Shown in pieces: positions 7,659-63,010 of a stretch of 64,000 nt of DNA (position 1 is its first letter; every line of letters begins with the position of its first letter). The notes beneath the pieces are model-generated. The model was not told the DNA's origin. It was given only the letters and a program-made list of their open reading frames with translations, and did not search any database. A program made the translations under genes and the position numbers. This DNA is from Planctomycetota bacterium (GTDB lineage Bacteria > Planctomycetota > PLA2 > JAEUHO01), in assembly GCA_050248855.1 (NCBI GenBank), contig JBFWRP010000007.1, forward strand, positions 76,695 through 140,694, in the 5' to 3' direction.

Positions 7659-8630
7659 TCAGCGCGACGGCTGGAGCGACGGCGCGACGGGCACCTTGAC
7701 GGTGGTGCGGATCTGGACGTGCATCATCTCGGGCAGCATCACGGTCACGGGCGCGAACGACGAGCCGAGCGTGGTCGCGAACAGGTCGATCGGACGGCGC
7801 AGCACGGTGAAGTCGTCGCGGATCTCGGTGGTCAGGTAGCCGCCATCGCCCGGCCGGCTCGCACCGCCCGCGGAGGTTCCCGCGGCCGCGGCGGCGCGCA
7901 CCTCGCGCGCACGCTGGACGAGCTTGTCCGCGGCGGCCAGAGCCTCGTCGATGCGCTCGCGCGGCACGCCGGTTTCCTCGGCCAGGGTGCGTAGCGCCTT
8001 GCGTGCTTCCTCGCGCTGGACGGGATCCGCGCTCACGAGCTGCCCCACCAGGCGACGGACCTCGTGCGAACGCGCCGCCAGACGCCGCGCCGTCTCCTGC
8101 GCGGCCGCGGCCTCACGGGCCGCGGCGTCGGCGTTGCGCCATTCCTCGGGCGTGTACCAGCGGTCGCCGTGACGCTCGAGGCCGCGCGCACGCTGGGCCT
8201 CGTCCGGGTGCATCCACTGGCCGCGGAAGCGCACGTGGCCCAGCACCTCGTGGGCCGTGGCGTCCTCGGGGTCGATCGCCAACACGGCGCGCGACAGCTG
8301 CTGCGCCTCGTCGAGACGGCCGACGTCGCGCAGCCATGCGGCGAGCGTCGCACGGCCCGCCGTGTCGTCGGGCTCGAGGCGCCGGAGCGCCTGCTCGATC
8401 TGCGCGTCGAGCGACGGGCCGGCGATGTGCTTGCGGACGTCGACGGCGGGCAGCTCGACGACGCCGAAGCGACTGGCCACGCGCCAGACGTCACCGTCGC
8501 GGACGGCCACGCCCTCGACGATGCGTCCATCGGCCAGCTCGAGAACGTCGGCGCGAGCCTCGGCGGCGACGCACGCCACCAAGGCCACCGCGAGCAAGGC
8601 GCCTACGCAGCGCACGAGGGCGCTCCTCAC
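7659..8630 (-). CDS. secreted hypothetical protein, paralogue A of a tandem pair
   Basis: GTG start overlapping the upstream stop (GTGA). Signal peptide MRSALVRCVGALLAVALVACVAAEARA. Shares ADVLEL.DGR.VEG and LGHVRFRGQWMHPDEA.RA.GLERHGDRWYTPEEW with 8627..9574. Confidence 0.7.
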   Translation of the reverse strand: MRSALVRCVGALLAVALVACVAAEARADVLELADGRIVEGVAVRDGDVWRVASRFGVVELPAVDVRKHIAGPSLDAQIEQALRRLEPDDTAGRATLAAWLRDVGRLDEAQQLSRAVLAIDPEDATAHEVLGHVRFRGQWMHPDEAQRARGLERHGDRWYTPEEWRNADAAAREAAAAQETARRLAARSHEVRRLVGQLVSADPVQREEARKALRTLAEETGVPRERIDEALAAADKLVQRAREVRAAAAAGTSAGGASRPGDGGYLTTEIRDDFTVLRRPIDLFATTLGSSFAPVTVMLPEMMHVQIRTTVKVPVAPSLQPSR

Positions 8631-9574
8631 GGACCGACGACGGGGATCACGCCCGTCGTGCGAACGCGGATGACCTCGAGCTCGGGCAGCTGGAGCGTGA
8701 CCGGTGCGCTGGGGAACGGGCCCGAAGCCAGGTTGGTCGTGACCTGCTGGATGGGCCGCTTGAGCTTGGCGAGCGTCACGCGGAAGGTGCTCATGACCTC
8801 ACCCATCATCATGCTGTCGCCGAGCTCCGCCGCGCGGGCCTGGGCTTCGTCCACGGCCTGGACGTACTCGTCCATGCGCGGGATGAGCGCCTCGATGGTC
8901 TCGTTGCCCGACTCCTTGGCCAGACGCTCCAAGCGCGTCCGTGCCCGCTGGCGCACGGCGCGGTCGGGGCTGGTCATGAGGTTCATGAGCCGCTGCGCCT
9001 CCCGCGCGGTGCGCGCGCGCTGCTCGCGCTCCTCCAGGGCCGAAGCCGCGTTGCGCTCTTCGGCGCCGACGTTGGCCCACTCCTCGGGCGTGTACCAACG
9101 ATCACCGTGACGCTCGAGCCCCTCGGCGCGTCGGGCTTCGTCGGGGTGCATCCACTGGCCGCGGAAGCGCACGTGGCCCAGCAGCGCGTGGGCGTCGGCC
9201 TGCTCGGGGTCGCAGGCCAGTACCTCTTCGGCCAGGGCGCGGGCCTCCTCGTCGCGCCCGAGACCCTTGAGCCACGCTGCGACGCGCACGCGGTTGGCGA
9301 AATCGTCCGCAGCCAGCTTGGCCAGGACGGCCTTCACCTGGGTGTCGGCCGCAGCGCCCTCGTGACGCGCGACGACGTCGGCAGCCGGGATGCTGCTGAC
9401 ACCGAAACGGCTGAGCACGAGCAGCTCGTCGCCGGACTTGACGACGACGCCCTCGACGAGCCGGCCGTCGGAGAGCTCCAGGACGTCGGCGCGGGCCGGG
9501 CCGGACGTGGCCGCGACGAGTCCGACGAGGCCGAGCGCCAGGGCAAGGGCGCGGCGGAGGCGGAAGGGCGTCAT
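8627..9574 (-). CDS. secreted hypothetical protein, paralogue B of a tandem pair
   Basis: Internal ATG of track ORF 8627..10240 (MTPFRLRRALALALGLVGLVAATSGPARA is a signal peptide). GAGGAG SD upstream. Same domain order as 7659..8630. Confidence 0.7.
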   Translation of the reverse strand: MTPFRLRRALALALGLVGLVAATSGPARADVLELSDGRLVEGVVVKSGDELLVLSRFGVSSIPAADVVARHEGAAADTQVKAVLAKLAADDFANRVRVAAWLKGLGRDEEARALAEEVLACDPEQADAHALLGHVRFRGQWMHPDEARRAEGLERHGDRWYTPEEWANVGAEERNAASALEEREQRARTAREAQRLMNLMTSPDRAVRQRARTRLERLAKESGNETIEALIPRMDEYVQAVDEAQARAAELGDSMMMGEVMSTFRVTLAKLKRPIQQVTTNLASGPFPSAPVTLQLPELEVIRVRTTGVIPVVGP

Positions 9575-53337: not shown

Positions 53338-55983
53338 ATGGACCCCCATCTCGAGCAGCGTCTGGCACGGATCGAGGAGCGGCTGGACGCCCTGGAGGAG
53401 ACGCAAGCCGCCGGCCGGCCTCTCCACCTCCTGTCGCCCGCCAGGCCCCACCTGCCCGCCGCGGGGCTCGCGACGAGGGCGACGGCCAAAGCGCCGCCGG
53501 CTCCGCCGCCGCCTCCGCCTGTGACGTCTGCGCAGGCCACACCCCCCACCGTCGCGACCGTGCCAGCCAAGACGCGACGCCCTGCCCCAGCCCGCTCCGC
53601 GCTGGACCTCGAGCGATTCCTCGGCGTCGCCGTGCTCGGCCGCATCGGCGTCGGCGCCGTCCTGTTGGCCGCCGCCTACTTCGCGCGCATGTGGTACGAC
53701 GCCTCCGCGCCGCTGGGCCGCGTGTTGCTGCTCCACGCGGCGGGCGCGTTGTTCTTCGCTGCGGGCTGGTGGGCGCGCGGCCGGGCCATTGCGCGCTACG
53801 TCGGCCTCCTCTGGGGTGCCGGCACGGCCCTCTTGTGGCTGGCCGCCGCGGCGGCCTACCTGCGCTTCGGGCTCGTGGGTCCCGAGGTCGCCTTGGGCAT
53901 GGCCTTGGCCACGAGCGTGCTCGCCACCTGGCATGCGCACGTGCTCGACAGCGAATGGCTGGCGAGCGCCGCGCTCGGCGGGGCCTTCGGCGCCGTCTTC
54001 CTCCTGCCGCTCACCGCCGACCCGCGCACCTTCCTCACGGCCTATGCGCTCGTGCTGCTCGCCTGGAGCCAGATGCTCGACCTCCGACGCGGCTGGGCGA
54101 TCGCGCGAGCGGTGGGCAGCGCCGGCGTGCTGCTGCTCACCGCCACGTGGGTCCTCCCGGGCGTGCGCTGGGACGCGAACCTGTGGTGGCACCTGCAAGC
54201 CATCGCCCTGGCGCTGGCCGCGCCCGAGCTTGTCCGCTTCCTGCTCGGCGGACGCCTCTCGCGCGCCCGCGGCGCCGCGGGGGCGACGCTCCTGGTCGTT
54301 CCGCAGGGCCTGTTGGCCCTGACGGATCTCGTGTGCGGCCACCTGCCGGGAGCCGGGACGCACGGCTTCGTCCTGGGGGTCGGGGCCGTGGCCCTGACCG
54401 GCGCCGTCCTGCGCATGCGCGAGGCCCGCGGGGGCACGCTCCTCGTGGGCTTCGCGGTGGCCGGCTTGGCGAGCGCGCTGCTCCCCTTCGGCGCCTCGCT
54501 CTGGGCCTTCCGCCTGGACGCGACGACGGCCCTGCGCTGCCACGTCGCGCTCGCCGCCCTGGCGGCGAGCGCGATCGTGCTGGTCGCGAGCTCGCGCTGG
54601 ACACGACGCGGCGAGGACGGCGCCGCCGGCGCCGGGGCGCTCGCGCTGCTCTGGCTGTTCCTCACGCCCCGGGGCGAACAGCTCGCGCCGGCGCTCGCCG
54701 ATTTCACGCTGGCGCTGCTGCCGGGTGCCCTGCTGCTGGCGCGCGCCCGCCGCACGCTCTGGTGCGGTGCAGGCGTCGCCCTCTTCGGCGCGGCGGCGGC
54801 CATCGAGCCGCTGCTCCTGGGGCTCGACACGCCGTGGGCCGCTCCCATGGCCTTCGGTCTGGCAGCCATCATCACCCTGGTGCTCCCGCTGGTGGCCCGA
54901 CCGGGGCGCAGTGCGCGGCTGCAGACGCTGCCCGCCGCACTGCCCCCCGTCTTCGCCGCGGCGTGGCTGGCCACGCTGGCCGCCGTCCCGCGGGCGGCTG
55001 ACGCCCTGCCCCTCTTCGAGCCCGTCACGATCTCCGCGCTCGTGATCGCGCTCACGGGCGCGGTCGTGCGCTGGCGCGGCGTCCGCGCCACGCGGGCAGG
55101 CACGACCGAGCGGGGTCTGGCCGAGGTGGCCGGTCTCGTGTCGACTCTCGTCGTCGTGATCGCCGGCCACCGCGAGATCGACGCGGCCACCGCGACGTGG
55201 GCCGCCGCCCAGGCAGGCCTCGCACGGATGGCGTGGTACGCCGCGGCCACGTTGCTGCTCGCCGCGCGCGGGCGCCGCACGCAGGCCCCGTGGGTGCCCG
55301 GCACGGTCATCGCGCTGGGCGCCGTGGCCGTGCTGCACGCGGGAGTCGTCGCCGCCGCGGCGCCCTGGACGCTCTCCACCACGACGATCGCCTTCCTGGC
55401 TGCGGTCGCGCTGCCGCTCGCGGCCGAGCGCGTCCTCCCGCGAGCTCGTGCGCTGTCCGCCGGGCGTGCGTGCTTGCTCCTGGTGGCGGCCTGCCTCTGG
55501 CTGGCGACGGGGCAACACGGGGTGCACGAGGGCGCCCTGCTCGGCAACGCGCGATTCCTGGCCGGCCTGGGCGTGGTGTTGGCCCTGCTCGTCGGCGCGC
55601 GCCTCGATCGCCATCGCGACGGGGCCCAGGGGCTGCGCGCGACCCAGCTCGGGGTCGCGCTTCCGCTGGGCTGGTTCGTCGGGCTGGGCGAGGTCCTGCA
55701 CCTCGTGCAGCCGCTGGACACGGCGTGGCGAGCCGTGGCGGTGAGCCTGTACACGACGGCCTGGGCCGCACTGCTGCTGCTCGGCGGGTTCCGCCTGCGC
55801 GTGCCGATCCTGCGCTACGTCGCGTTGGCCACCTTCGGTGCGGTCATCCTGAAGGTCGGGTTCTACGACCTGCGTGCCACGTCGCTGCCGCTGCGCGTCC
55901 TCGTGACGGGCGTCCTGGGCATCGTGCTGCTGGTCGCCGCCTACGGCTACGCACGGCGCAAGGAGGAACCGCGGGCCGGGTAA
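53338..55983 (+). CDS. large polytopic membrane protein (DUF2339-like)
   Basis: N-terminal coiled coil MDPHLEQRLARIEERLDALEE, a Pro/Ala linker, then more than 20 hydrophobic helices. AGGAGG SD. Confidence 0.6.
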   Translation: MDPHLEQRLARIEERLDALEETQAAGRPLHLLSPARPHLPAAGLATRATAKAPPAPPPPPPVTSAQATPPTVATVPAKTRRPAPARSALDLERFLGVAVLGRIGVGAVLLAAAYFARMWYDASAPLGRVLLLHAAGALFFAAGWWARGRAIARYVGLLWGAGTALLWLAAAAAYLRFGLVGPEVALGMALATSVLATWHAHVLDSEWLASAALGGAFGAVFLLPLTADPRTFLTAYALVLLAWSQMLDLRRGWAIARAVGSAGVLLLTATWVLPGVRWDANLWWHLQAIALALAAPELVRFLLGGRLSRARGAAGATLLVVPQGLLALTDLVCGHLPGAGTHGFVLGVGAVALTGAVLRMREARGGTLLVGFAVAGLASALLPFGASLWAFRLDATTALRCHVALAALAASAIVLVASSRWTRRGEDGAAGAGALALLWLFLTPRGEQLAPALADFTLALLPGALLLARARRTLWCGAGVALFGAAAAIEPLLLGLDTPWAAPMAFGLAAIITLVLPLVARPGRSARLQTLPAALPPVFAAAWLATLAAVPRAADALPLFEPVTISALVIALTGAVVRWRGVRATRAGTTERGLAEVAGLVSTLVVVIAGHREIDAATATWAAAQAGLARMAWYAAATLLLAARGRRTQAPWVPGTVIALGAVAVLHAGVVAAAAPWTLSTTTIAFLAAVALPLAAERVLPRARALSAGRACLLLVAACLWLATGQHGVHEGALLGNARFLAGLGVVLALLVGARLDRHRDGAQGLRATQLGVALPLGWFVGLGEVLHLVQPLDTAWRAVAVSLYTTAWAALLLLGGFRLRVPILRYVALATFGAVILKVGFYDLRATSLPLRVLVTGVLGIVLLVAAYGYARRKEEPRAG

Positions 55984-55993: not shown

Positions 55994-57010
55994 GTGCCGA
56001 CCAACGCCCCGCTCGCGATGAAGCTCCCGCTGCTGCGCCTGGGCGCGCTGCCGCTCGAGAGCCCCTTCGTGCAGGCGGCGCTCAGCGGCTACAGCGACCG
56101 ACCCATGCGCGTGCTCGCGCGCCGTCACGGTGCGGCCTACACCGTGCACGAAGTGCTGATCGACCGGTTCGTGCGCGAAGTCCGGAGTGCCACGGCCCGC
56201 GCGCGGCACTTCGCCGTCGGCGACGAGGAACACCCCGTCGGCGCGCAGCTCATGGGCAGCGAGCCGTCCGACTTCCCCGCCGCGGCCGAGCGGTTGGTCG
56301 AGGCCGGTTACGACGCCATCGACATCAACTTCGGCTGCCCCGTGCGCTCGGCCATGGGCGGCTGCCGCGGCGGCTACCACCTGGGCCAGCCCGACGTGGC
56401 CCTGGACATCGTGCGCACCGTGCGCAGTGCCGTTCCCGCCCACCTGCCCGTGACCGTCAAGATGCGACGCGGCATCGACGACACGCCGGCCAGCCGCAGC
56501 GCGTTCTTCCGCATCCTCGACGGCGCCTTCGACGCGGGGGTCGCCGCCATCACCGTGCACGGGCGCACCGTGGAGCAGAAGTACGTCGGTCCCAGCAGCT
56601 GGCCGTTCCTGCGCGACGTCAAGGCGCACGCCGGCGACCGCACGATCCTCGGCAGCGGTGACCTCTTCACCGCCGACGACGCGCTGCGCATGCTCGCCGA
56701 GACCGGCGTGGACGGCGTCAGCCTCGCCCGCGGCGCGATCGGCAACCCGTGGATCTTCCGCGACTGCCAGGAGCTGGCCGCGGGGCGCGTGCCGACACCG
56801 CCGACCGTCGCGGAACAACGCGCCGTGCTGGAAGCGCACCGCGACCTCCTGGCCGCGATCCATGGTCCACGTGGTTGGCTGACGCCGCTGCGCCGCCATG
56901 CGGTGAAGTACGCGCGCCATCACCCGGACGGCAACGCCGTACGCGATGCCTTCGGTCGCGCGCATGCACCGGAGGCGTTCGACGCGGTGGTGGCGAGCTA
57001 CTACGCGTAG
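55994..57010 (+). CDS. tRNA-dihydrouridine synthase (Dus family)
   Basis: FVQAALSGYSDRPMR, DINFGCPV and VTVKMRRG motifs of the FMN-dependent Dus TIM barrel. ATG 56018 is an alternative start. Confidence 0.85.
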   Translation: MPTNAPLAMKLPLLRLGALPLESPFVQAALSGYSDRPMRVLARRHGAAYTVHEVLIDRFVREVRSATARARHFAVGDEEHPVGAQLMGSEPSDFPAAAERLVEAGYDAIDINFGCPVRSAMGGCRGGYHLGQPDVALDIVRTVRSAVPAHLPVTVKMRRGIDDTPASRSAFFRILDGAFDAGVAAITVHGRTVEQKYVGPSSWPFLRDVKAHAGDRTILGSGDLFTADDALRMLAETGVDGVSLARGAIGNPWIFRDCQELAAGRVPTPPTVAEQRAVLEAHRDLLAAIHGPRGWLTPLRRHAVKYARHHPDGNAVRDAFGRAHAPEAFDAVVASYYA

Positions 57011-57013
57011 GCG

Positions 57014-58513
57014 TCAGAAGCCTCCGCCCGTGCGGAAGCCACCGCTTCGCGACGAGCCGCCGCTGCGCGAGGAGCCACCGCCGCTCCAGCCGCCGCCGGA
57101 CGAGCCACGGCTCGAGGAACCGCCCCCCCACGACCACCCACCGCCGCTGGAGCGGCCACCACCGCCACGCGAGGACCCGCCCCAGCTCCAGCTTCCGCCC
57201 CAGCTGCCGCTGCGACGCGAGGACGGCGGGGTCTCGAACCACTGGTTGCGGCTCATGGTGGCCCAGATCTCGGCGGCCGTGAGCACGCCCGCGAGCAGGC
57301 TCTTGAGCAGCTGGCCCCAGTCGAGGCCCCCCTTCAGGACCGAGCTCGACGCGTCGTAGTCGTTGCGCCGGAAGCGCCGCCGGAGGTCCTCGACACGCCC
57401 AAGGGCCTCGAGCGCCTTCCGGTGCGCCTCGTGTTGTTCGGCGAGCATGGCGCCGAGCCTCGAGCGCTCGGCCTGCAGGGCCGCGAGCGCCGTGACGGCG
57501 AGGTCGTCCACGCTGGTGGGCGTCGCGGTCGCGTCGCGCTGCAACGTGGCCAGCGGCTCGCTCTCCACGTGGGCCACCAGCAGGCCGTAGGCCTTGCGGC
57601 TGAGCTCGTCTTCGTCCGCGTCGAAGGCGGCCAAGCGCTCGCGCCCCTTGGCAATCCGCGCTTCCGCCTCCTCCACGGCCTCCTCGGCCTTGGTCAACAC
57701 CGCGGCGCGCCCATCGACGTCGGCCAGCAGCTCGAGGATGCCCGCCTTCTCCTCGGCTTCCGCGACGGAGGCGGCGACCGCGTCGGTCTCCGCCGTCGCC
57801 TTCTCGGCAGCACGCCGGGCGTGCTCGGCCAAGCGCACGGGAATCTCGAGCAGGCGGGCGTAGTTGCGGCGCGCGCCGTCGTAGCGGCAGAGCTTGGCGA
57901 CCCAGCCGTCGAGCGTCCGGATCAGCGCGTTCGCCCGGTAGCGCTCCGTGCCGTAGCCGCGCTTCCAGAGGTAGGCGAAGAGCTTGTCCTTCTCGTAGGG
58001 CTCGCCTTTGGCGACGCGGTCGGCGGCGCTGGCCTCGGCCTTCTCGTGCGCCGCCTGGGCCTGGGCCGTCGCCCGCTCCGCGCGCTGGACGAGCATCTCG
58101 TGGCGGGGCGAGGCGGCCAACGCTTCCGCAACGGCTTCGCGACGCGCCTCCAGCGCCGCCACGGCCGCGTCCAGCTCCGCCCGCCGCTCCACGCGCACGC
58201 CTTCGCGGCGCTCGCGGTCGGCCGCCGCGTCGGCGATGGCCTCTTCCGTCTCGAGGCGCGCCGCATCGCGCTCGGCGAGCAGAGCGAGGACCCGCTGGTC
58301 GACGGCATCGAGGTCTGCGGTGACCTGCTTGGCCTCGAGCGCGTCGAAGCGCGCCCGCGCCACGTCCGCCAGCTGGCGGGTCTCCTCCTCGCGCAGGCCC
58401 TCGAGGCGGTCGGCCGTGGCCCGCAGCTCGCGACCGGCGCGCTCGGCGCGCTCGGCACCCGCCGCCACGGTGGCCTCGATGTCGCGCAGGACGGCGGCGC
58501 CGCGGCTCACCAC
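57014..58513 (-). CDS. coiled-coil protein with a 69-aa Gly/Ser/Trp/Arg-rich C-terminal tail, hypothetical
   Basis: Tandem GTG starts (58513/58510); the second overlaps the upstream stop (GTGA). Long Ala/Glu/Arg coiled coils and a conserved-looking core KGEPYEKDKLFAYLWKRGYGTERYRANALIRTLDGWVAKL. Confidence 0.6.
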   Translation of the reverse strand: MVSRGAAVLRDIEATVAAGAERAERAGRELRATADRLEGLREEETRQLADVARARFDALEAKQVTADLDAVDQRVLALLAERDAARLETEEAIADAAADRERREGVRVERRAELDAAVAALEARREAVAEALAASPRHEMLVQRAERATAQAQAAHEKAEASAADRVAKGEPYEKDKLFAYLWKRGYGTERYRANALIRTLDGWVAKLCRYDGARRNYARLLEIPVRLAEHARRAAEKATAETDAVAASVAEAEEKAGILELLADVDGRAAVLTKAEEAVEEAEARIAKGRERLAAFDADEDELSRKAYGLLVAHVESEPLATLQRDATATPTSVDDLAVTALAALQAERSRLGAMLAEQHEAHRKALEALGRVEDLRRRFRRNDYDASSSVLKGGLDWGQLLKSLLAGVLTAAEIWATMSRNQWFETPPSSRRSGSWGGSWSWGGSSRGGGGRSSGGGWSWGGGSSSRGSSGGGWSGGGSSRSGGSSRSGGFRTGGGF

Positions 58514-59976
58514 GACACGATCCAGCCGCCTGCGGTCGCGAAGCGGTATGTGGGCTCGAAGGCTCCGGCCCGCTTCGCCCCGAACACCGCATCGTCGACG
58601 ATGCCGTTGTCCTGCTTGTCGCGCTTGACCTGCTCGTAGACGGCCTCGGGCACGCGCACGCCGAAGCGCGTCGCCGTGTGCACGCGCTGGTCTTCGTCAC
58701 TGACGATGGTCAGCGGGACCAGCCGCCCGTCCTCGCCGACGGCCTCGACGATGATGTAGTAGCTGCGGACGTCGTGGCGCTCGACCGGCGTGCGCCACAC
58801 CCCGCTGCGTTCGTCGGGCCGGGAGACGATGCGCAGCGTGTAGGACTGCTCCAGGCGCGTGAGCAAGCGCTCCAGCTGTTCGAGGGCGTCTCGCAGGGTC
58901 GCGTCGTCGCCCGATGCGAGCGCCCCCTGCACGGCCTTCGTGCGATCCGCCACGCGTGGCGCGGCGCGCTCGTCGAGCGTCATGCGCGCCACGCGCGCGG
59001 CCGCCACGTCCAAGGCGTGACGCGCCTGCGCGCGCAAGGCCTCCGCGCCCAGGACGGAGCCCACCGCCGTACGCAACGCCTGCACCCGGCTCTTGCTGTC
59101 GGCGGCGTCCCCGCGGTCGATGGCCGCCAGCGCATCGTCGCGCAACCGGTTCAGACGGGCCTGCGTGCCTTCGTCCAGCGACAGCCCGCCCAGGCGATCC
59201 AGCTCGATGCCGACGGCGCGGGCCGCGAGCGCAAGCTCGCGGACGACATCGAGGCGGCCGGCGATCTCGCCCAGCGCCGACTGCACGACGCCGTAGTCGC
59301 GCCGGGCCGCGCCCAGCTCGTCCTCCATCTTCCCGGGCGCCGCGTCGAACGCGTCCTGGTCCACCGTGCCGTCAAGGCGCTCGATCACCCGCTGCAAGCG
59401 CGAGCGGGTCGCCACGAGCTCCTCGGCCGTCTCCTGCCCCAGGCGGTGCCAGGGGCCCGGCTTGTCGTCCGGTCCGGGCAGCTGCCGCTCGAGGTCCTCC
59501 AGACGGCGCCCGGCCCGCTCGACCTCATGCTCGAGCGCCGTGCGCGCCGCTCCGTACGCCTCGCGACGCGCCTTGGCCTTGCGCGAGCGGTCCCAGGCCA
59601 CGAGCCCGAACGCCACGAGAGCGAGCGCCAGCACGACGCCTGACCGCACGAACCACTTGCCGCGATCGACGTAGATCTCCGCCAGGCGAACGCGAAGCGT
59701 GCGCTCGGGCGGACGGTACACGAACCGGTCCCGCACGAGGGCCTCGACGCCCTCCTCGATGACCTCCTGGGGCACCTCGATGCCCTGGTCGGCATAGATG
59801 CCGCGGACCCGCTGGACGAGCGCGGCGCGCCGACCCTCCTCGCCGAGCTCCGCCTCCACGATCGCCCGTTGGTGGCGGAGCGTGTCCACCACGTCCATGG
59901 CCAGCATGACCTCGTCCAGCGGCGCGGCGGCCGTCGGCGCAGGCAGCGAGTCGGTCGTGGGCGCGTCCGAAGACAT
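58507..59976 (-). CDS. single-pass membrane coiled-coil protein, hypothetical
   Basis: N-terminal module LDEVMLAMDVVDTLRHQRAIVE..., TM helix VVLALALVAFGLVAW, about 230 aa of coiled coil, and a roughly 110-aa beta-rich C-terminal domain. 12 nt after the upstream stop. Confidence 0.6.
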   Translation of the reverse strand: MSSDAPTTDSLPAPTAAAPLDEVMLAMDVVDTLRHQRAIVEAELGEEGRRAALVQRVRGIYADQGIEVPQEVIEEGVEALVRDRFVYRPPERTLRVRLAEIYVDRGKWFVRSGVVLALALVAFGLVAWDRSRKAKARREAYGAARTALEHEVERAGRRLEDLERQLPGPDDKPGPWHRLGQETAEELVATRSRLQRVIERLDGTVDQDAFDAAPGKMEDELGAARRDYGVVQSALGEIAGRLDVVRELALAARAVGIELDRLGGLSLDEGTQARLNRLRDDALAAIDRGDAADSKSRVQALRTAVGSVLGAEALRAQARHALDVAAARVARMTLDERAAPRVADRTKAVQGALASGDDATLRDALEQLERLLTRLEQSYTLRIVSRPDERSGVWRTPVERHDVRSYYIIVEAVGEDGRLVPLTIVSDEDQRVHTATRFGVRVPEAVYEQVKRDKQDNGIVDDAVFGAKRAGAFEPTYRFATAGGWIVSW

Positions 59977-59988
59977 CGCGGTGTGGGA

Positions 59989-61197
59989 TCAGGCCGGGGA
60001 CGGAGCCGGCAGCGCGGCGGCCTGCTCTTCGAGACGGATCATGCGCAGCTTCCCGTCCTCGACCGCCGCCCGCACCTCTTCCTCGTTCTTGCGACTGAGC
60101 TCGCGCATCTCCGTGATGATCTCGCGCGAGCGCTGCTGCCAGGCGACCACGGCGTCCACGAGCTTCTTCACGGACTCGACGCGGATCGTGGGGCCGTAGC
60201 CGGCCTTGATCGCGGCCTCCTGGATCTTGGTGCCCTCGTCGCCCAAGGTCTCCAGGCTCTTCTCGATGCCCTTCTTCATGGCCTCGAGCGTCTGCGTCGC
60301 CTCGTGCAGCCCGCTCATGCCCGTGAAGGAGGCGGAGAGCGCCGTGAACACGGTCTCGTTGGTACCGAAGAACGTGACGGCCTGGGAGTAGACGCGCTCC
60401 TTGGCGTTGGTGATCTGGTGCAGGCGCGCCATGATCACTTCCGTGGTGTTGTAGGCGATGGAGAGGTTCTCGGCGAGGTCCTTGCAGATCTGGTAGCGCT
60501 TGTCTTCGTCTTGCAGCTCGCGCATGGCGAGGTCGCGCGTCATCTCGAGGCGGGCGGCCTTCTCGCGGTCGTCGCCCTTCTGCTTGCCCACGGCCTCCGC
60601 GGCCTTGGCCAGCGCCTTCTTGTCCTTCTCCAGCTCGGCGTCGGCCTTCTTGAGCAGCCGGAAGCCGAGGATCTCCGCTTCCTTCAGCGCGCCTCGGAAG
60701 TCGGCATACGCCTCGAGGACGCGGCGCTCGCGCTCGATCTGGTCGCGCGTGTCGCCTGCCACGTCGAGGTAGGTCGTGCGGATCTTGTCGAAGCGGGCGG
60801 GAATGTCGCCGCGCGTCACCTTCATCCAGACGTTGGAGACCCGCTCCATCGTGCTGAGCTTGCCGTCGTCGACCTGCTCCACCATGCGCTTGGCATCTTC
60901 GCGGATGCTGTCGAAGGCATTGGTGATGGACGCGTAGCGCTCGCCGACCGAGACGGCGCTGATCTCCTCGCGGACCACCTTGTTGAACAACGTGGCCTGG
61001 GAGAGCGTGCGCGCAATGAGGGCCGCGGTGTCGGGATCGAGCGGCGCCACGCGCTCGATGAGCGCCACGACGGGCGCGGGCTCGTTGCCTTCGGGCAGGA
61101 TGCCCATGGTGCGCAGCGCCCCGAGGGCCTTGTCGAGCAGCTTGAGGGGCTTGGGCCTGGGAGCGGACTTGGGCGCGGGCTTGGCCTTGCCGGACAT
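59989..61197 (-). CDS. TelA/YaaN-like (toxic-anion-resistance family) all-alpha protein - tentative
   Basis: Internal ATG with GGAG upstream. 402 aa, all-helical, Lys/Glu-rich. The overall length and pattern resemble the TelA family. No search was possible. Confidence 0.4.
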   Translation of the reverse strand: MSGKAKPAPKSAPRPKPLKLLDKALGALRTMGILPEGNEPAPVVALIERVAPLDPDTAALIARTLSQATLFNKVVREEISAVSVGERYASITNAFDSIREDAKRMVEQVDDGKLSTMERVSNVWMKVTRGDIPARFDKIRTTYLDVAGDTRDQIERERRVLEAYADFRGALKEAEILGFRLLKKADAELEKDKKALAKAAEAVGKQKGDDREKAARLEMTRDLAMRELQDEDKRYQICKDLAENLSIAYNTTEVIMARLHQITNAKERVYSQAVTFFGTNETVFTALSASFTGMSGLHEATQTLEAMKKGIEKSLETLGDEGTKIQEAAIKAGYGPTIRVESVKKLVDAVVAWQQRSREIITEMRELSRKNEEEVRAAVEDGKLRMIRLEEQAAALPAPSPA

Positions 61198-61281
61198 GGG
61201 AGGGTCTCCGGGGTGTCGAGGGGCCGCATGATGGCGCGACCTGCCACCCGACGGCAACGCCAAGCCCGGAGAAGTGCCCAC

Positions 61282-62244
61282 TTAGAACAGGACGTACGCC
61301 AGGTAGGCCGCCACTTCGCGCATCACGGCGAACGGCTTGGTCGGCCAACGCTGGGTCTCGCGGCAGGGCAGCGTGTAGGACACGACACCCTCCCGCTCGA
61401 GCGCCCAGCGCACGCGGGCGACGTGGTAGTCGTGACTCACCACGAGCACGCTTCGCCACCCCCGCTCGCGGGCCAGCTCGGCCACGGCCCGTGCGGTGGC
61501 GTGCGTGTCGACGCCGCTCTCGTCGAGCACCAAGCGCTCGGCGGGCACGCCCCGCTCGCGGCAGAGGCGCGCCATCACGCTCGGCTCGGAGCGCGGCGCA
61601 CCCTCGCCGAGTCCCCCCGAGAGCACGAGGGGCCGCCCGGGGTCGCCGGCCGCGTAGGCGCGGCACGCCTCGACCGTGCGGTCCCGCAGCGCCGTCGAGG
61701 CACGCCCGTCGTGGGTGACGCGGGCGCCCAGCACGACGATGGCGTCGCCACGTGTCGGGTCGAAGCGCGTCCCCCCGATCCAGAGCAGGTGCGCCAGCAC
61801 CGACACGAGCCCCATCCCCACGACCGCCACGCCGAGCACCGCGTTCGCGGCCAGTCCACGGGAGCGCGGCAGCGGCGGCAGCGCGGCCCAGGCGCCGAGC
61901 AGGATCGCCAGCACCAGGCTCTCGGGCACGGGCGAGCCGGCCACGACACCCGCACCACCCGCCGTGATGCCGAACAGACGCACGGCGTCGGCGAGCGCCA
62001 GGCAGGCGAGGCCGGCCGCCAGGCCGCGGCGGTGGCGCCAGCGGGTCACGACGGCGAGCCCGAACGCCGCCGTCACGACGGTCAGCACGATCCGCGGCAG
62101 ACCGCCACCCTGGATCCAGAGCGCCATGCGATCGTGCCCATCGGCCAGCTGTCGGACGACGCCGACCAGCGCGAAGAGGGCCACGGCAAGTACCCAGGCG
62201 TCGAGTGCGCGTCGGGCGAGGTTCGAGATGCGAAACGGCGCCAT
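61282..62244 (-). CDS. DUF218 (YdcF/ElyC/SanA-like) membrane protein
   Basis: Internal ATG. Several TM helices, then AIVVLGARV...LVLSGGLG...SEPSVMARL...VLDESGVDTHATA...VLVVSHDYH, typical of the DUF218 fold. Confidence 0.7.
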   Translation of the reverse strand: MAPFRISNLARRALDAWVLAVALFALVGVVRQLADGHDRMALWIQGGGLPRIVLTVVTAAFGLAVVTRWRHRRGLAAGLACLALADAVRLFGITAGGAGVVAGSPVPESLVLAILLGAWAALPPLPRSRGLAANAVLGVAVVGMGLVSVLAHLLWIGGTRFDPTRGDAIVVLGARVTHDGRASTALRDRTVEACRAYAAGDPGRPLVLSGGLGEGAPRSEPSVMARLCRERGVPAERLVLDESGVDTHATARAVAELARERGWRSVLVVSHDYHVARVRWALEREGVVSYTLPCRETQRWPTKPFAVMREVAAYLAYVLF

Positions 62245-62289: not shown

Positions 62290-62709
62290 ATGAAATGCTG
62301 CGAACAACGACTCGAGATCGCCACGTCGGGGCGCGGCTTGGTCGACATCACGACCGACGTACAGCACGCCGTCGGGCGCGCTGGCATCACCACGGGCTTC
62401 GTGGTGGTCTTCTGCCAGCACACCTCCTGCAGCTTGCTGATCCAGGAGAACGCCGATCCCAGCGCACGCCGCGACCTCCTGGCTTGGCTCGAGCGCCTCG
62501 CCCCGGACGGCGACCCGCGCTACACGCACGACGCCGAAGGGCCCGACGACATGGCGGCGCACCTGCGCAGCGCCGTCACGAGGACCTCGGAGACGATCCC
62601 CATCCACGGGAGTCGGCTGGCCCTCGGCATGTGGCAGGGTCTGTTCCTGGCCGAGCACCGGACCCGACCGCACCGCCGCCGGTTGGCGGTGACGGTCGTG
62701 GGAACCTGA
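62290..62709 (+). CDS. YjbQ/UPF0047-family protein (secondary thiamine-phosphate synthase-like)
   Basis: Internal ATG at the end of track ORF 59869..62709. FCQHTSCSLLIQENADPSARRDL...YTHDAEGPDDMAAHLRS...LGMWQGLFLAEHR. Confidence 0.8.
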   Translation: MKCCEQRLEIATSGRGLVDITTDVQHAVGRAGITTGFVVVFCQHTSCSLLIQENADPSARRDLLAWLERLAPDGDPRYTHDAEGPDDMAAHLRSAVTRTSETIPIHGSRLALGMWQGLFLAEHRTRPHRRRLAVTVVGT

Positions 62710-62716
62710 CGGCGAC

Positions 62717-63010
62717 CTACTTGAGGACGCCGAGGAAGCGCAGCGCGATGATCAGCAGCACCGAGCCGCCCAGGGCCAGCAGCGCGACGCCCACCCAGCC
62801 CGAGACCGAGATGCCGAGCACCCCGCCGAGCCACCCGCCGATGTAGGCGCCCGCGACGCCCACGAGCACGTTGGCGACCAAACCCATCTGCCCGCTCGTC
62901 TTCATGACGATGCTGGCCAGCCAGCCGATGAGGCCGCCGATGACCAAGAAGACGATCGTGTGTCCGATCGAGTCGAAGGGGTAGGAGGCAGCGATCAGAT
63001 CGTGCGGCAT
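62717..63010 (-). CDS. GlsB/YeaQ/YmgE-family (transglycosylase-associated) stress membrane protein
   Basis: 97 aa, Gly-zipper helices IGGLIGWLASIVM...GLVANVLVGVAGAYIGGWLGG. GGAGAC SD. Confidence 0.8.
   Translation of the reverse strand: MPHDLIAASYPFDSIGHTIVFLVIGGLIGWLASIVMKTSGQMGLVANVLVGVAGAYIGGWLGGVLGISVSGWVGVALLALGGSVLLIIALRFLGVLK

Follow-up and report, generated by a model that had tools for sequence, protein, structure and literature searches.

A conserved three-gene cassette with a DUF6384 membrane protein on bacterial chromosomes, megaplasmids and a jumbo phage

What kind of system is encoded by three tightly coupled genes whose products match no enzyme family? The question is raised by a locus in a 64,000-nt stretch of DNA from a Planctomycetota bacterium (assembly GCA_050248855.1, contig JBFWRP010000007.1, positions 76,695 to 140,694 of the forward strand; below, the window). 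An initial annotation, made from the sequence alone, described the locus as an uncharacterised operon encoding a TelA/YaaN-like protein, a membrane-anchored coiled-coil protein and a coiled-coil protein with a Gly/Ser/Trp/Arg tail. The three open reading frames (ORFs) lie where it had placed them, all on the minus strand. Gene A (59989..61197) encodes a soluble, all-helical protein of 402 aa, the most constrained of the three components. Gene B (58507..59976) encodes a single-pass membrane protein of 489 aa that belongs to DUF6384 (PF19911), and gene C (57014..58513) encodes an Ala/Arg/Glu-rich protein of 499 aa without a Pfam or NCBIfam family. The coupling is as tight as described: the TGA stop codon of A is followed by 12 nt and then by the ATG of B, and the stop codon of B and the GTG start codon of C overlap in a shared GTGA. 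The reading that we favour, with a confidence somewhat short of even, is that A, B and C form one stoichiometric, membrane-anchored complex that would stabilise or monitor the cytoplasmic membrane and envelope under stress.

The three genes form a conserved unit. Both B and C, in the order A-B-C, are present in 59 of 60 non-redundant loci with at least 3.3 kb of DNA downstream of A (hidden Markov models, HMMs, of B and C; tblastn in the first pass), and such a constant order excludes chance. The intergenic gaps of the homologous cassettes are mostly short or overlapping. The lone exception (L022) is a 5,509-bp contig of a Lysobacteraceae metagenome-assembled genome (MAG), which has 3.7 kb downstream of A and no recognisable B or C; it could reflect an assembly problem or a genuine loss. 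In a scan of 185,579 genomes, one per species, relatives were found in 529, mainly in Planctomycetota, Lysobacterales/Rhodanobacteraceae, Desulfobacterales and other 'delta' lineages, Pseudomonadales, Chromatiales and Nitrospirota. Pseudofulvimonas gallinarii and two Planctomycetota genomes carry the same three genes between unrelated flanks, and there is no conserved fourth gene, the commonest flanking family occurring in at most 16 of about 80 loci. The comparison of gene neighbourhoods that the initial annotation had proposed thus reveals a conserved three-gene unit with differing flanks in several phyla. The cassette is real, widespread, self-contained and uncharacterised in the resources searched.

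The three proteins are not equally constrained. When the same 52 cassettes are compared, A averages 66.7% pairwise identity, B 39.1% and C 36.7%, and the far higher value for A indicates much stronger purifying selection on this protein. Identity of A is 72-79% within taxa and 60-69% between taxa, while that of B and C between phyla is 32-44%. For all three proteins, identity within taxa exceeds identity between taxa, so inheritance within these lineages looks largely vertical. The constraint on A suggests an assembly with many fixed interfaces and would fit a self-assembling layer or oligomer.

The cassette is also carried by large mobile elements. A tblastn search of 72,556 plasmid records with A as the query identified 11 megaplasmids or chromids. 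Seven of these belong to Pseudomonas (P. aeruginosa contributes two and P. alcaligenes one), and the other four come from Microvirga, Bradyrhizobium, Methylorubrum extorquens AM1 and Rhizobium, one each. On the 398-kb PA83 plasmid, the three genes are annotated as 'merozoite surface protein 3b', 'DUF6384 family protein' and 'hypothetical protein'. The first of these names, like the 'cell surface protein' that NCBI gives to some homologues of A, looks spurious. The mobile replicons that carry the cassette span 262 kb to 1.4 Mb.

The sole phage carrier is the 262-kb Yersinia phage phiR1-37, in which the cassette corresponds to g190-g192. The product of g190 is 40% identical to A, and that of g191 is a further member of DUF6384 (E 4.7e-26). 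The product of g192 is only C-like, in its position, its size and a Ser/Gly tail ending in GGGGGFSSSDSF, and it escapes detection with the C HMM (E 0.7). The transmembrane region of g191 (8127-9449 of locus L086) weakly resembles the holin family Phage_holin_6_1 (E 0.002, short of the Pfam cut-off), which probably reflects the composition of the transmembrane helix only. No other phage copy was found in three scans of IMG/VR (2.9 million viral contigs) or in tblastn searches of phage records (50,697 records, and a further search under relaxed settings), so the phiR1-37 copy appears isolated, and E. coli genomes contain no match to the phage cassette at the DNA level. In the published RNA-seq data, mean values at the early, middle and late stages are 32.7-42.0k for g190, 13.9-16.0k for g191 and 16.3-24.4k for g192, compared with tens to low thousands for most other listed genes; the three genes are among the highest expressed at all stages and are assigned to no temporal class (PMC4848604 Table S2). 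The phage annotation does not mark their products as virion proteins, and a published phage toxicity screen mentions neither phiR1-37 nor g190-g192. Carriage on megaplasmids and strong expression in the phage would fit protection of the envelope during infection, or exclusion of competitors.

The latter possibility leads to an alternative in which the primary role of the cassette is conflict between mobile elements, namely as a membrane barrier to competing phages or plasmids (superinfection exclusion, or 'phage inhibition' of the Ter/TelA type). It would account for the patchy distribution over 529 of 185,579 species genomes, the flanks that differ between loci, the carriage by 11 megaplasmids or chromids and a jumbo phage, and the very strong transcription, from the early stage of phiR1-37 infection, of genes not annotated as encoding virion proteins, and it is in line with the proposal of Iyer et al. 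that Ter/TelA components help jumbo phages to fend off superinfecting phages (PMC7824862). However, this alternative is unlikely on the present evidence. Scans of A, B and C against Pfam, NCBIfam, PADLOC and PHROGs returned only DUF6384 for B, and thus neither a PADLOC or PHROGs match nor a nuclease, protease, NTPase or other effector domain (Pfam, NCBIfam); PADLOC-DB 2.0 gave only a chance-level LeoBC match for B (E 0.012), in which no stretch passes the threshold. The neighbouring genes are housekeeping or miscellaneous genes with no recognisable defence genes among them, inheritance looks largely vertical in these lineages, and only one phage carries the cassette among the viral contigs and phage records searched. 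In addition, defence proteins are usually far less conserved than A.

The same library scans support the claim that no catalytic motif is present, as no enzyme family matches A, B or C. The claim that the cassette is not a described system is likewise borne out: matches to known systems are absent, no paper mentioning DUF6384 or PF19911 was found, and nothing bearing on the cassette was found in the literature on TelA and PspA. Sequence and profile searches of A, B and C against the PDB returned coiled-coil noise only.

Protein B provides the membrane anchor. It matches PF19911 with 312.7 bits (E 3.1e-93; gathering score 25 bits) in two stretches that cover both ends of the model, and it has 994 homologues, PF19911 being carried by all 120 listed. 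The AlphaFold2 model of B (predicted local distance difference test, pLDDT, 88) contains an N-terminal helical domain, a long helix that includes the transmembrane segment, helical bundles and a C-terminal alpha/beta domain. The N-terminal helical domain (residues 20-103; 59668..59919, minus strand, as are all features below unless stated) is the best-conserved part of the protein, with M24, L25, A26, M27, D28, D31, T32, L33 and R34 invariant. It is followed by the transmembrane helix (residues 108-128; 59593..59655), an uncharged span with a hydropathy of 2.26. Each of 72 homologues of B examined has such an uncharged span, 19-26 residues long, in agreement with the claim of membrane association, since at least one component is membrane-anchored.

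The charges that flank this span provide an indication of its orientation. On average, the N-terminal flank contains 4.39 Lys or Arg and 0.82 Asp or Glu and the C-terminal flank 3.19 and 2.29, respectively; the N-terminal flank is the more basic one in 49 homologues, and the C-terminal flank in 9. By the positive-inside rule, this bias of the family favours an N-in/C-out topology, with the N-terminal domain predicted to be cytoplasmic.

The remainder of B would then be periplasmic. A helical stalk (residues 129-376; 58849..59592) is modelled with pLDDT >90 as helices broken into bundles, and the C-terminal alpha/beta domain (residues 377-489; 58510..58848), which ends in GGWIVSW, is modelled with high confidence as strands and one helix. 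In this domain Y379, G392, R395, Y407, E428, R441, D453 and K468 are invariant, and a weak match of the B model to the DnaK fold extends over about 100 residues, possibly those of the C-terminal domain. The lengths of B homologues cluster at about 303-314, 360-364, 416-432 and 481-502 aa, in classes about 60 aa apart. All of this variation falls in the stalk, where the alignment contains gaps; the domains at either end are conserved. The PF19911 model, with 308 positions, corresponds to the short form, and B of the window has about 180 extra stalk residues. The stalk lengths look as though helical modules have been gained or lost. Of the architecture first assigned to B, the cytoplasmic-type module, the single transmembrane helix and the C-terminal domain are retained, whereas the model replaces one long coiled coil by helical bundles. 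Heptad periodicity in B and C is partial and patchy, so 'long coiled coil' is an over-description of both proteins.

No component is more constrained than protein A. More than 7,775 homologues can be detected. The best 120, from several phyla, are 64-77% identical to A, with one at 96%, and none of these 120 contains a Pfam domain. The clusters of diverse A-family representatives yielded metagenomic sequences only. In agreement with the prediction of an all-helical protein, the AlphaFold2 model of A (pLDDT 72) is entirely helical, with long helices at residues 131-205, 211-295 and 340-394. The charge is balanced (66 Lys and Arg, 65 Asp and Glu), and the hydropathy maximum of 1.12 lies below the transmembrane level.

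In an alignment of 29 sequences, the invariant positions of A cluster in three motifs that are non-helical or lie at helix ends. The first, WMKVTRGDIP (residues 124-133; 60799..60828), forms the turn between helices 117-128 and 131-205 in the model; W124, M125, K126, T128, R129, G130, D131 and P133 are invariant, and G130 is nearly invariant across 36 diverse representatives. The second, FFGTNETVFTALSASFTG (residues 276-293; 60319..60372), consists of invariant columns at the end of helix 211-295. It is the most conserved stretch of A and mildly hydrophobic, being among the top three hydropathy windows (0.89), and the region is kept in phiR1-37 g190 as FFSTNETVFTG. The third, AGYGPTIR (residues 332-339; 60181..60204), is a non-helical loop of low pLDDT between helices 320-331 and 340-394, with G333, Y334, G335, P336 and T337 invariant. 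The turn of the long hairpin (residues ~205-211) is variable, gapped and hydrophilic.

The helical fold of A raises a second alternative, in which A, with B and C, would be a pore-forming or lysis-type system of the alpha-helical kind, akin to the ClyA/XaxA/AhlB/Nhe/Mak family. In that family, too, an operon comprises genes for two or three helical proteins of 350-400 aa, and the fold of A matches XaxA, AhlB, SmhB, NheA, MakA and Hbl-B with a probability of at most 0.97 and a TM-score of 0.35-0.50. There are further weak matches of A to MakB (phmmer, E 0.25) and of B to xenorhabdolysin subunit A (NCBIfam, E 0.042), besides the holin-family match over the transmembrane region of g191. But no Foldseek match reaches an E-value of 1e-3, and generic long-helix proteins such as chemoreceptors, Rad50 and I-BAR proteins have scores that equal or exceed those of the toxins, so that the resemblance is one of long helical bundles in general. 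A hydrophobic head is missing from A, in keeping with its low hydropathy maximum and with the hydrophilic, variable tip of its hairpin, and the hosts are free-living environmental bacteria. The 60-69% identity of A across phyla is atypical of toxins, and the constant high expression in phiR1-37 from the early stage does not fit a lysis timer. A pore-forming function is therefore highly improbable. Membership of A itself in the ClyA family was rejected (best Foldseek E 0.07-0.2, TM-score not above 0.5, no hydrophobic segment).

Protein C is the most divergent component. Its 175 homologues are 27-44% identical, apart from one close relative (P0121) at 82%, and it has no match in Pfam, NCBIfam or PADLOC. 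C is presumably helical. The initial annotation had noted a conserved-looking core and a 69-aa low-complexity tail, and both are confirmed. The core (residues 150-235; 57809..58066), defined by the conservation profile, holds PYEKDKLFAYLWKRGYG...LDGWVAKL, and A155, K158, F179, Y181, L182, Y192, D202, A206, L221 and P225 are invariant. An amphipathic segment (residues 395-420; 57254..57331) is a candidate membrane-surface helix; it contains the hydropathy maximum of C, 1.36, which is below the transmembrane level. As neither A nor C has a hydrophobic segment of transmembrane level, neither protein spans the membrane. A recurrent LLGxLLxG...W...RxQ pattern precedes the tail in homologues of C. 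The tail itself (residues 431-499; 57017..57223) is rich in Gly, Ser, Trp and Arg in the window and rich in Gly and Phe in most homologues (53 tails compared). The terminal motif GGF[RK]TGGGF is nearly universal, with G491, G492, F493, T495, G496, G497 and F499 invariant or nearly so.

Some sources auto-annotate homologues of C as 'chromosome segregation ATPase' or 'SbcCD ATPase subunit'. These names, together with the occurrence of the cassette on replicons of 262 kb to 1.4 Mb and with the extreme conservation of A, which resembles that of self-assembling proteins, would agree with a third alternative: a tether resembling a cytoskeleton, by which very large replicons (a chromosome region, a megaplasmid or the replication compartment of a jumbo phage) are positioned or segregated at the membrane. 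However, the names reflect coiled-coil composition only, and no ATPase, DNA-binding or ParA/ParB-like domain was found with Pfam or NCBIfam. Moreover, most megaplasmids lack the cassette (11 carriers among the 72,556 plasmid records), and in the loci examined it does not lie beside partition or replication genes. We consider such a tether very improbable.

We return to the complex proposed at the outset, in which each protein would have a distinct place. B would be the anchor, a single-pass protein of the inner membrane whose conserved N-terminal domain faces the cytoplasm and may serve as the docking site for A, C or both. Its stalk of modular length and its C-terminal domain would reach into the periplasm and contact or sense a component of the envelope. 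A would be a soluble, elongated helical-bundle protein, possibly a distant relative of TelA, that assembles under the membrane, and its three invariant motifs may form a functional end for docking to B, to C or to further A molecules. C may lie on the inner face of the membrane through its amphipathic helix, with the Gly/aromatic tail as a putative interaction motif. The stress in question may include that imposed by, or aimed at, large mobile elements. In its fullest form, which we advance with slightly more doubt than the complex itself, the cassette would encode an undescribed machine that spans the inner membrane, with a self-assembling A and a DUF6384 anchor, and that reinforces or remodels the envelope for bacteria, megaplasmids and a jumbo phage.

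Several points weigh against the proposed complex. The mutual binding of A, B and C is a step that we infer. The model of A is of only moderate confidence, and neither the model of A nor that of B has a match in the PDB at an E-value of 1e-3 (Foldseek). B of the window is an exception to the charge bias of its family, with six Lys or Arg after the transmembrane helix and four before it, so that the topology is drawn from the family average only. No stress-type promoter was recognised upstream: among 82 loci, a sigma-54-like motif upstream of A was found in none and an extracytoplasmic function (ECF)-like pattern in two. Envelope-stress genes are not nearby in most loci. The initial annotation had proposed a membrane-associated scaffold or stress-sensing module. 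The real unit and the membrane-anchored B of that proposal are observed, while the scaffold or stress role remains conjectural.

The surroundings of the cassette in the window are as initially described. The stop codon of C lies 3 bp from that of a convergent dus gene (Pfam Dus, E 2.9e-54), and a DUF218 gene (Pfam, E 1.3e-25) precedes A on the same strand. A spacer of 84 nt with a GGAG Shine-Dalgarno sequence (61198..61281) separates the DUF218 gene from A, which starts with the ATG at 61197. Alignments of A homologues begin near residue 9-17 of the 402-aa form, and this start is therefore favoured over that of a longer ORF beginning with GTG. Neither a sigma-70-like promoter nor a terminator was found in 56900-61500. 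The segment 50001-64000 of the window is colinear with a contig of the Planctomycetota MAG HK-STAS-PLAN-1, with 78-85% nucleotide identity and the same gene order, and the A proteins of the two are 95% identical. This MAG is the closest genome, so the source of the window is probably a high-GC planctomycete and not a member of Myxococcota. Just upstream of dus, on the plus strand, 53338-55983 encodes an 881-aa multi-pass membrane protein with DUF2339 (E 1.7e-18) and a Pro/Ala-rich N-terminus. On the other side of the cassette, 62293-62709 (plus strand) encodes a UPF0047 (YjbQ-like) protein (E 1e-39). Beside it, 62717-63010 (minus strand) encodes a Gly-rich small membrane protein of 97 aa, which has no Pfam match at an E-value of 1e-3 and which we take to resemble the GlsB/YeaQ/YmgE stress-protein type.

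Is A itself a relative of TelA? As initially stated, the designation 'TelA/YaaN-like' is not supported: A is not a member of Pfam TelA. PF05816 does not match A of the window at E-values up to 10 or any of 36 diverse members of the A family at E-values up to 0.1, while the TelA protein of phage Kp34, as a positive control, matches it at 1e-34. An exhaustive profile search of 1.84 billion representatives recovered only 657 clusters, which shows that the A family is closed and does not merge with TelA. The initial annotation held that its proposal would be refuted by the lack of a TelA match together with a lack of co-occurrence of the genes. The three genes strongly co-occur, so the missing match does not by itself overturn it.

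A remote relationship was examined with eight genuine TelA proteins: B. subtilis YaaN, IncP KlaB, phage Kp34 TelA and five others, from Pseudomonas luteola, Acinetobacter, Clostridium, Comamonas and Aeromonas. An HMM of the A family, run unfiltered on 758 sequences, places four of the eight above all 714 decoys (E 3.6e-5, 0.0026, 0.0066 and 0.051; best decoy 0.79), and reversed TelA sequences score at most 5 bits. The alignments connect equivalent positions, residues 270-380 of A with 250-385 of TelA and residues 82-146 of A with 80-145 of TelA. An hhalign comparison of A and TelA is colinear over 323 columns and scores 25.3, compared with a mean of 18.0 and a maximum of 24.9 for 60 block shuffles. 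In the viral structure library BFVD, the 27 best matches of A include four models of phage TelA proteins (probability 0.85-1.0, E 0.007-0.03).

Other results count against the relationship, besides the lack of a Pfam match. The hhalign probability is 2.2%, and unrelated pairs score as high (C with TelA, P 0.0086; C with A, P 0.016), so that the score of A with TelA is not distinctive. In the reciprocal search with a TelA HMM, a single protein of the 241 in the A family rises above the decoys taken from B and C. No fold match of A in the PDB or BFVD reaches an E-value of 1e-3. We know of no established mechanism for TelA itself, and the analogy therefore explains little. The TelA signal for A is thus weak and inconsistent; on balance, we judge true remote homology to be slightly favoured. 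C was also considered as a paralogue of A or TelA and was rejected, the hhalign matches being short and at chance level.

The significance of the cassette lies in its spread and in the absence of family models for its parts. A and C have no Pfam or NCBIfam model, though A has thousands of homologues, and B is assigned only to a DUF. Occurrence on chromosomes, megaplasmids and a jumbo phage suggests a function at the level of the envelope that is useful to hosts and to large mobile elements, and a clinical P. aeruginosa megaplasmid is among the carriers. If A is a deep relative of TelA, the cassette would represent a defined three-partner system and a first tractable handle on TelA-type proteins. 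Cultured or cloned sources exist, namely Pseudofulvimonas gallinarii DSM 21944, phiR1-37 with Yersinia enterocolitica, and the Pseudomonas megaplasmids.

Among known systems, DUF6384 offers a sequence definition only, neither a function nor a structure having been found for it. The PspA/Vipp1/ESCRT-III proteins offer a conceptual likeness, being soluble helical proteins that a partner in the membrane brings to its inner face. However, PspA/Vipp1 gave no Pfam match, only coiled-coil noise for B (E 0.3-0.4), and the 50 best fold matches of A in the PDB include no PspA/Vipp1/ESCRT-III protein. Expression of the E. coli psp operon depends on a sigma-54 promoter, and no motif of that kind was found upstream of A in the 82 loci. 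The tail of C recalls proteins of the YgcG type (COG1512, TPM-domain proteins): the low-complexity C-terminus of C is rich in Gly and aromatic residues, tails of a similar GGGGF/GGGSW type occur in YgcG-type proteins, and JGI labels one homologue of C (P0220) 'uncharacterized membrane protein YgcG'. Unlike the YgcG type, C has neither a TPM domain nor a transmembrane helix, and the likeness is one of composition.

The closest comparison is with the TelA modules klaA-klaB-klaC and xpaC-yaaN. TelA proteins, at 358-390 aa, are similar in size to A, and both have an all-alpha architecture, A by its model and TelA presumably. The genes of both lie in small operons beside one for a membrane protein, and plasmids as well as jumbo phages carry them (PMC7824862). 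Neither B nor C resembles KlaA, KlaC or XpaC, no Ter, XpaC or KlaA/KlaC gene is present among the called neighbours of five loci, and no flanking family is conserved. Genuine TelA and the cassette occur together on two plasmids, one from P. aeruginosa and one from P. alcaligenes, so that the two are not interchangeable. On the P. aeruginosa PA83 plasmid (NZ_CP017294.1), a 'toxic anion resistance protein' gene lies at ~165 kb and the cassette at ~288 kb, and the Pseudomonas megaplasmid NZ_AP025274.1 likewise carries both a TelA gene and A-B-C. The TelA genes of plasmids (Pseudomonas luteola, Comamonas, Aeromonas, IncP) belong to a recurrent three-gene set like klaA-klaB-klaC, in which a shorter upstream gene is followed by TelA and then by another gene. 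The upstream gene is named 'toxic anion resistance protein' in Pseudomonas luteola and Aeromonas and 'hypothetical protein' in Comamonas. The layout of these sets parallels that of the cassette, and the partner proteins have no detectable homology.

The cassette may be a small module centred on a TelA-like helical protein and a membrane partner, its link to modules of that kind being uncertain. In the proposal of Iyer et al. (2021), structures built by TelA beneath the membrane hinder phages or xenobiotics from entering (PMC7824862). If A is a deep relative of TelA, a comparable role as a barrier beneath the membrane would be plausible for the cassette.

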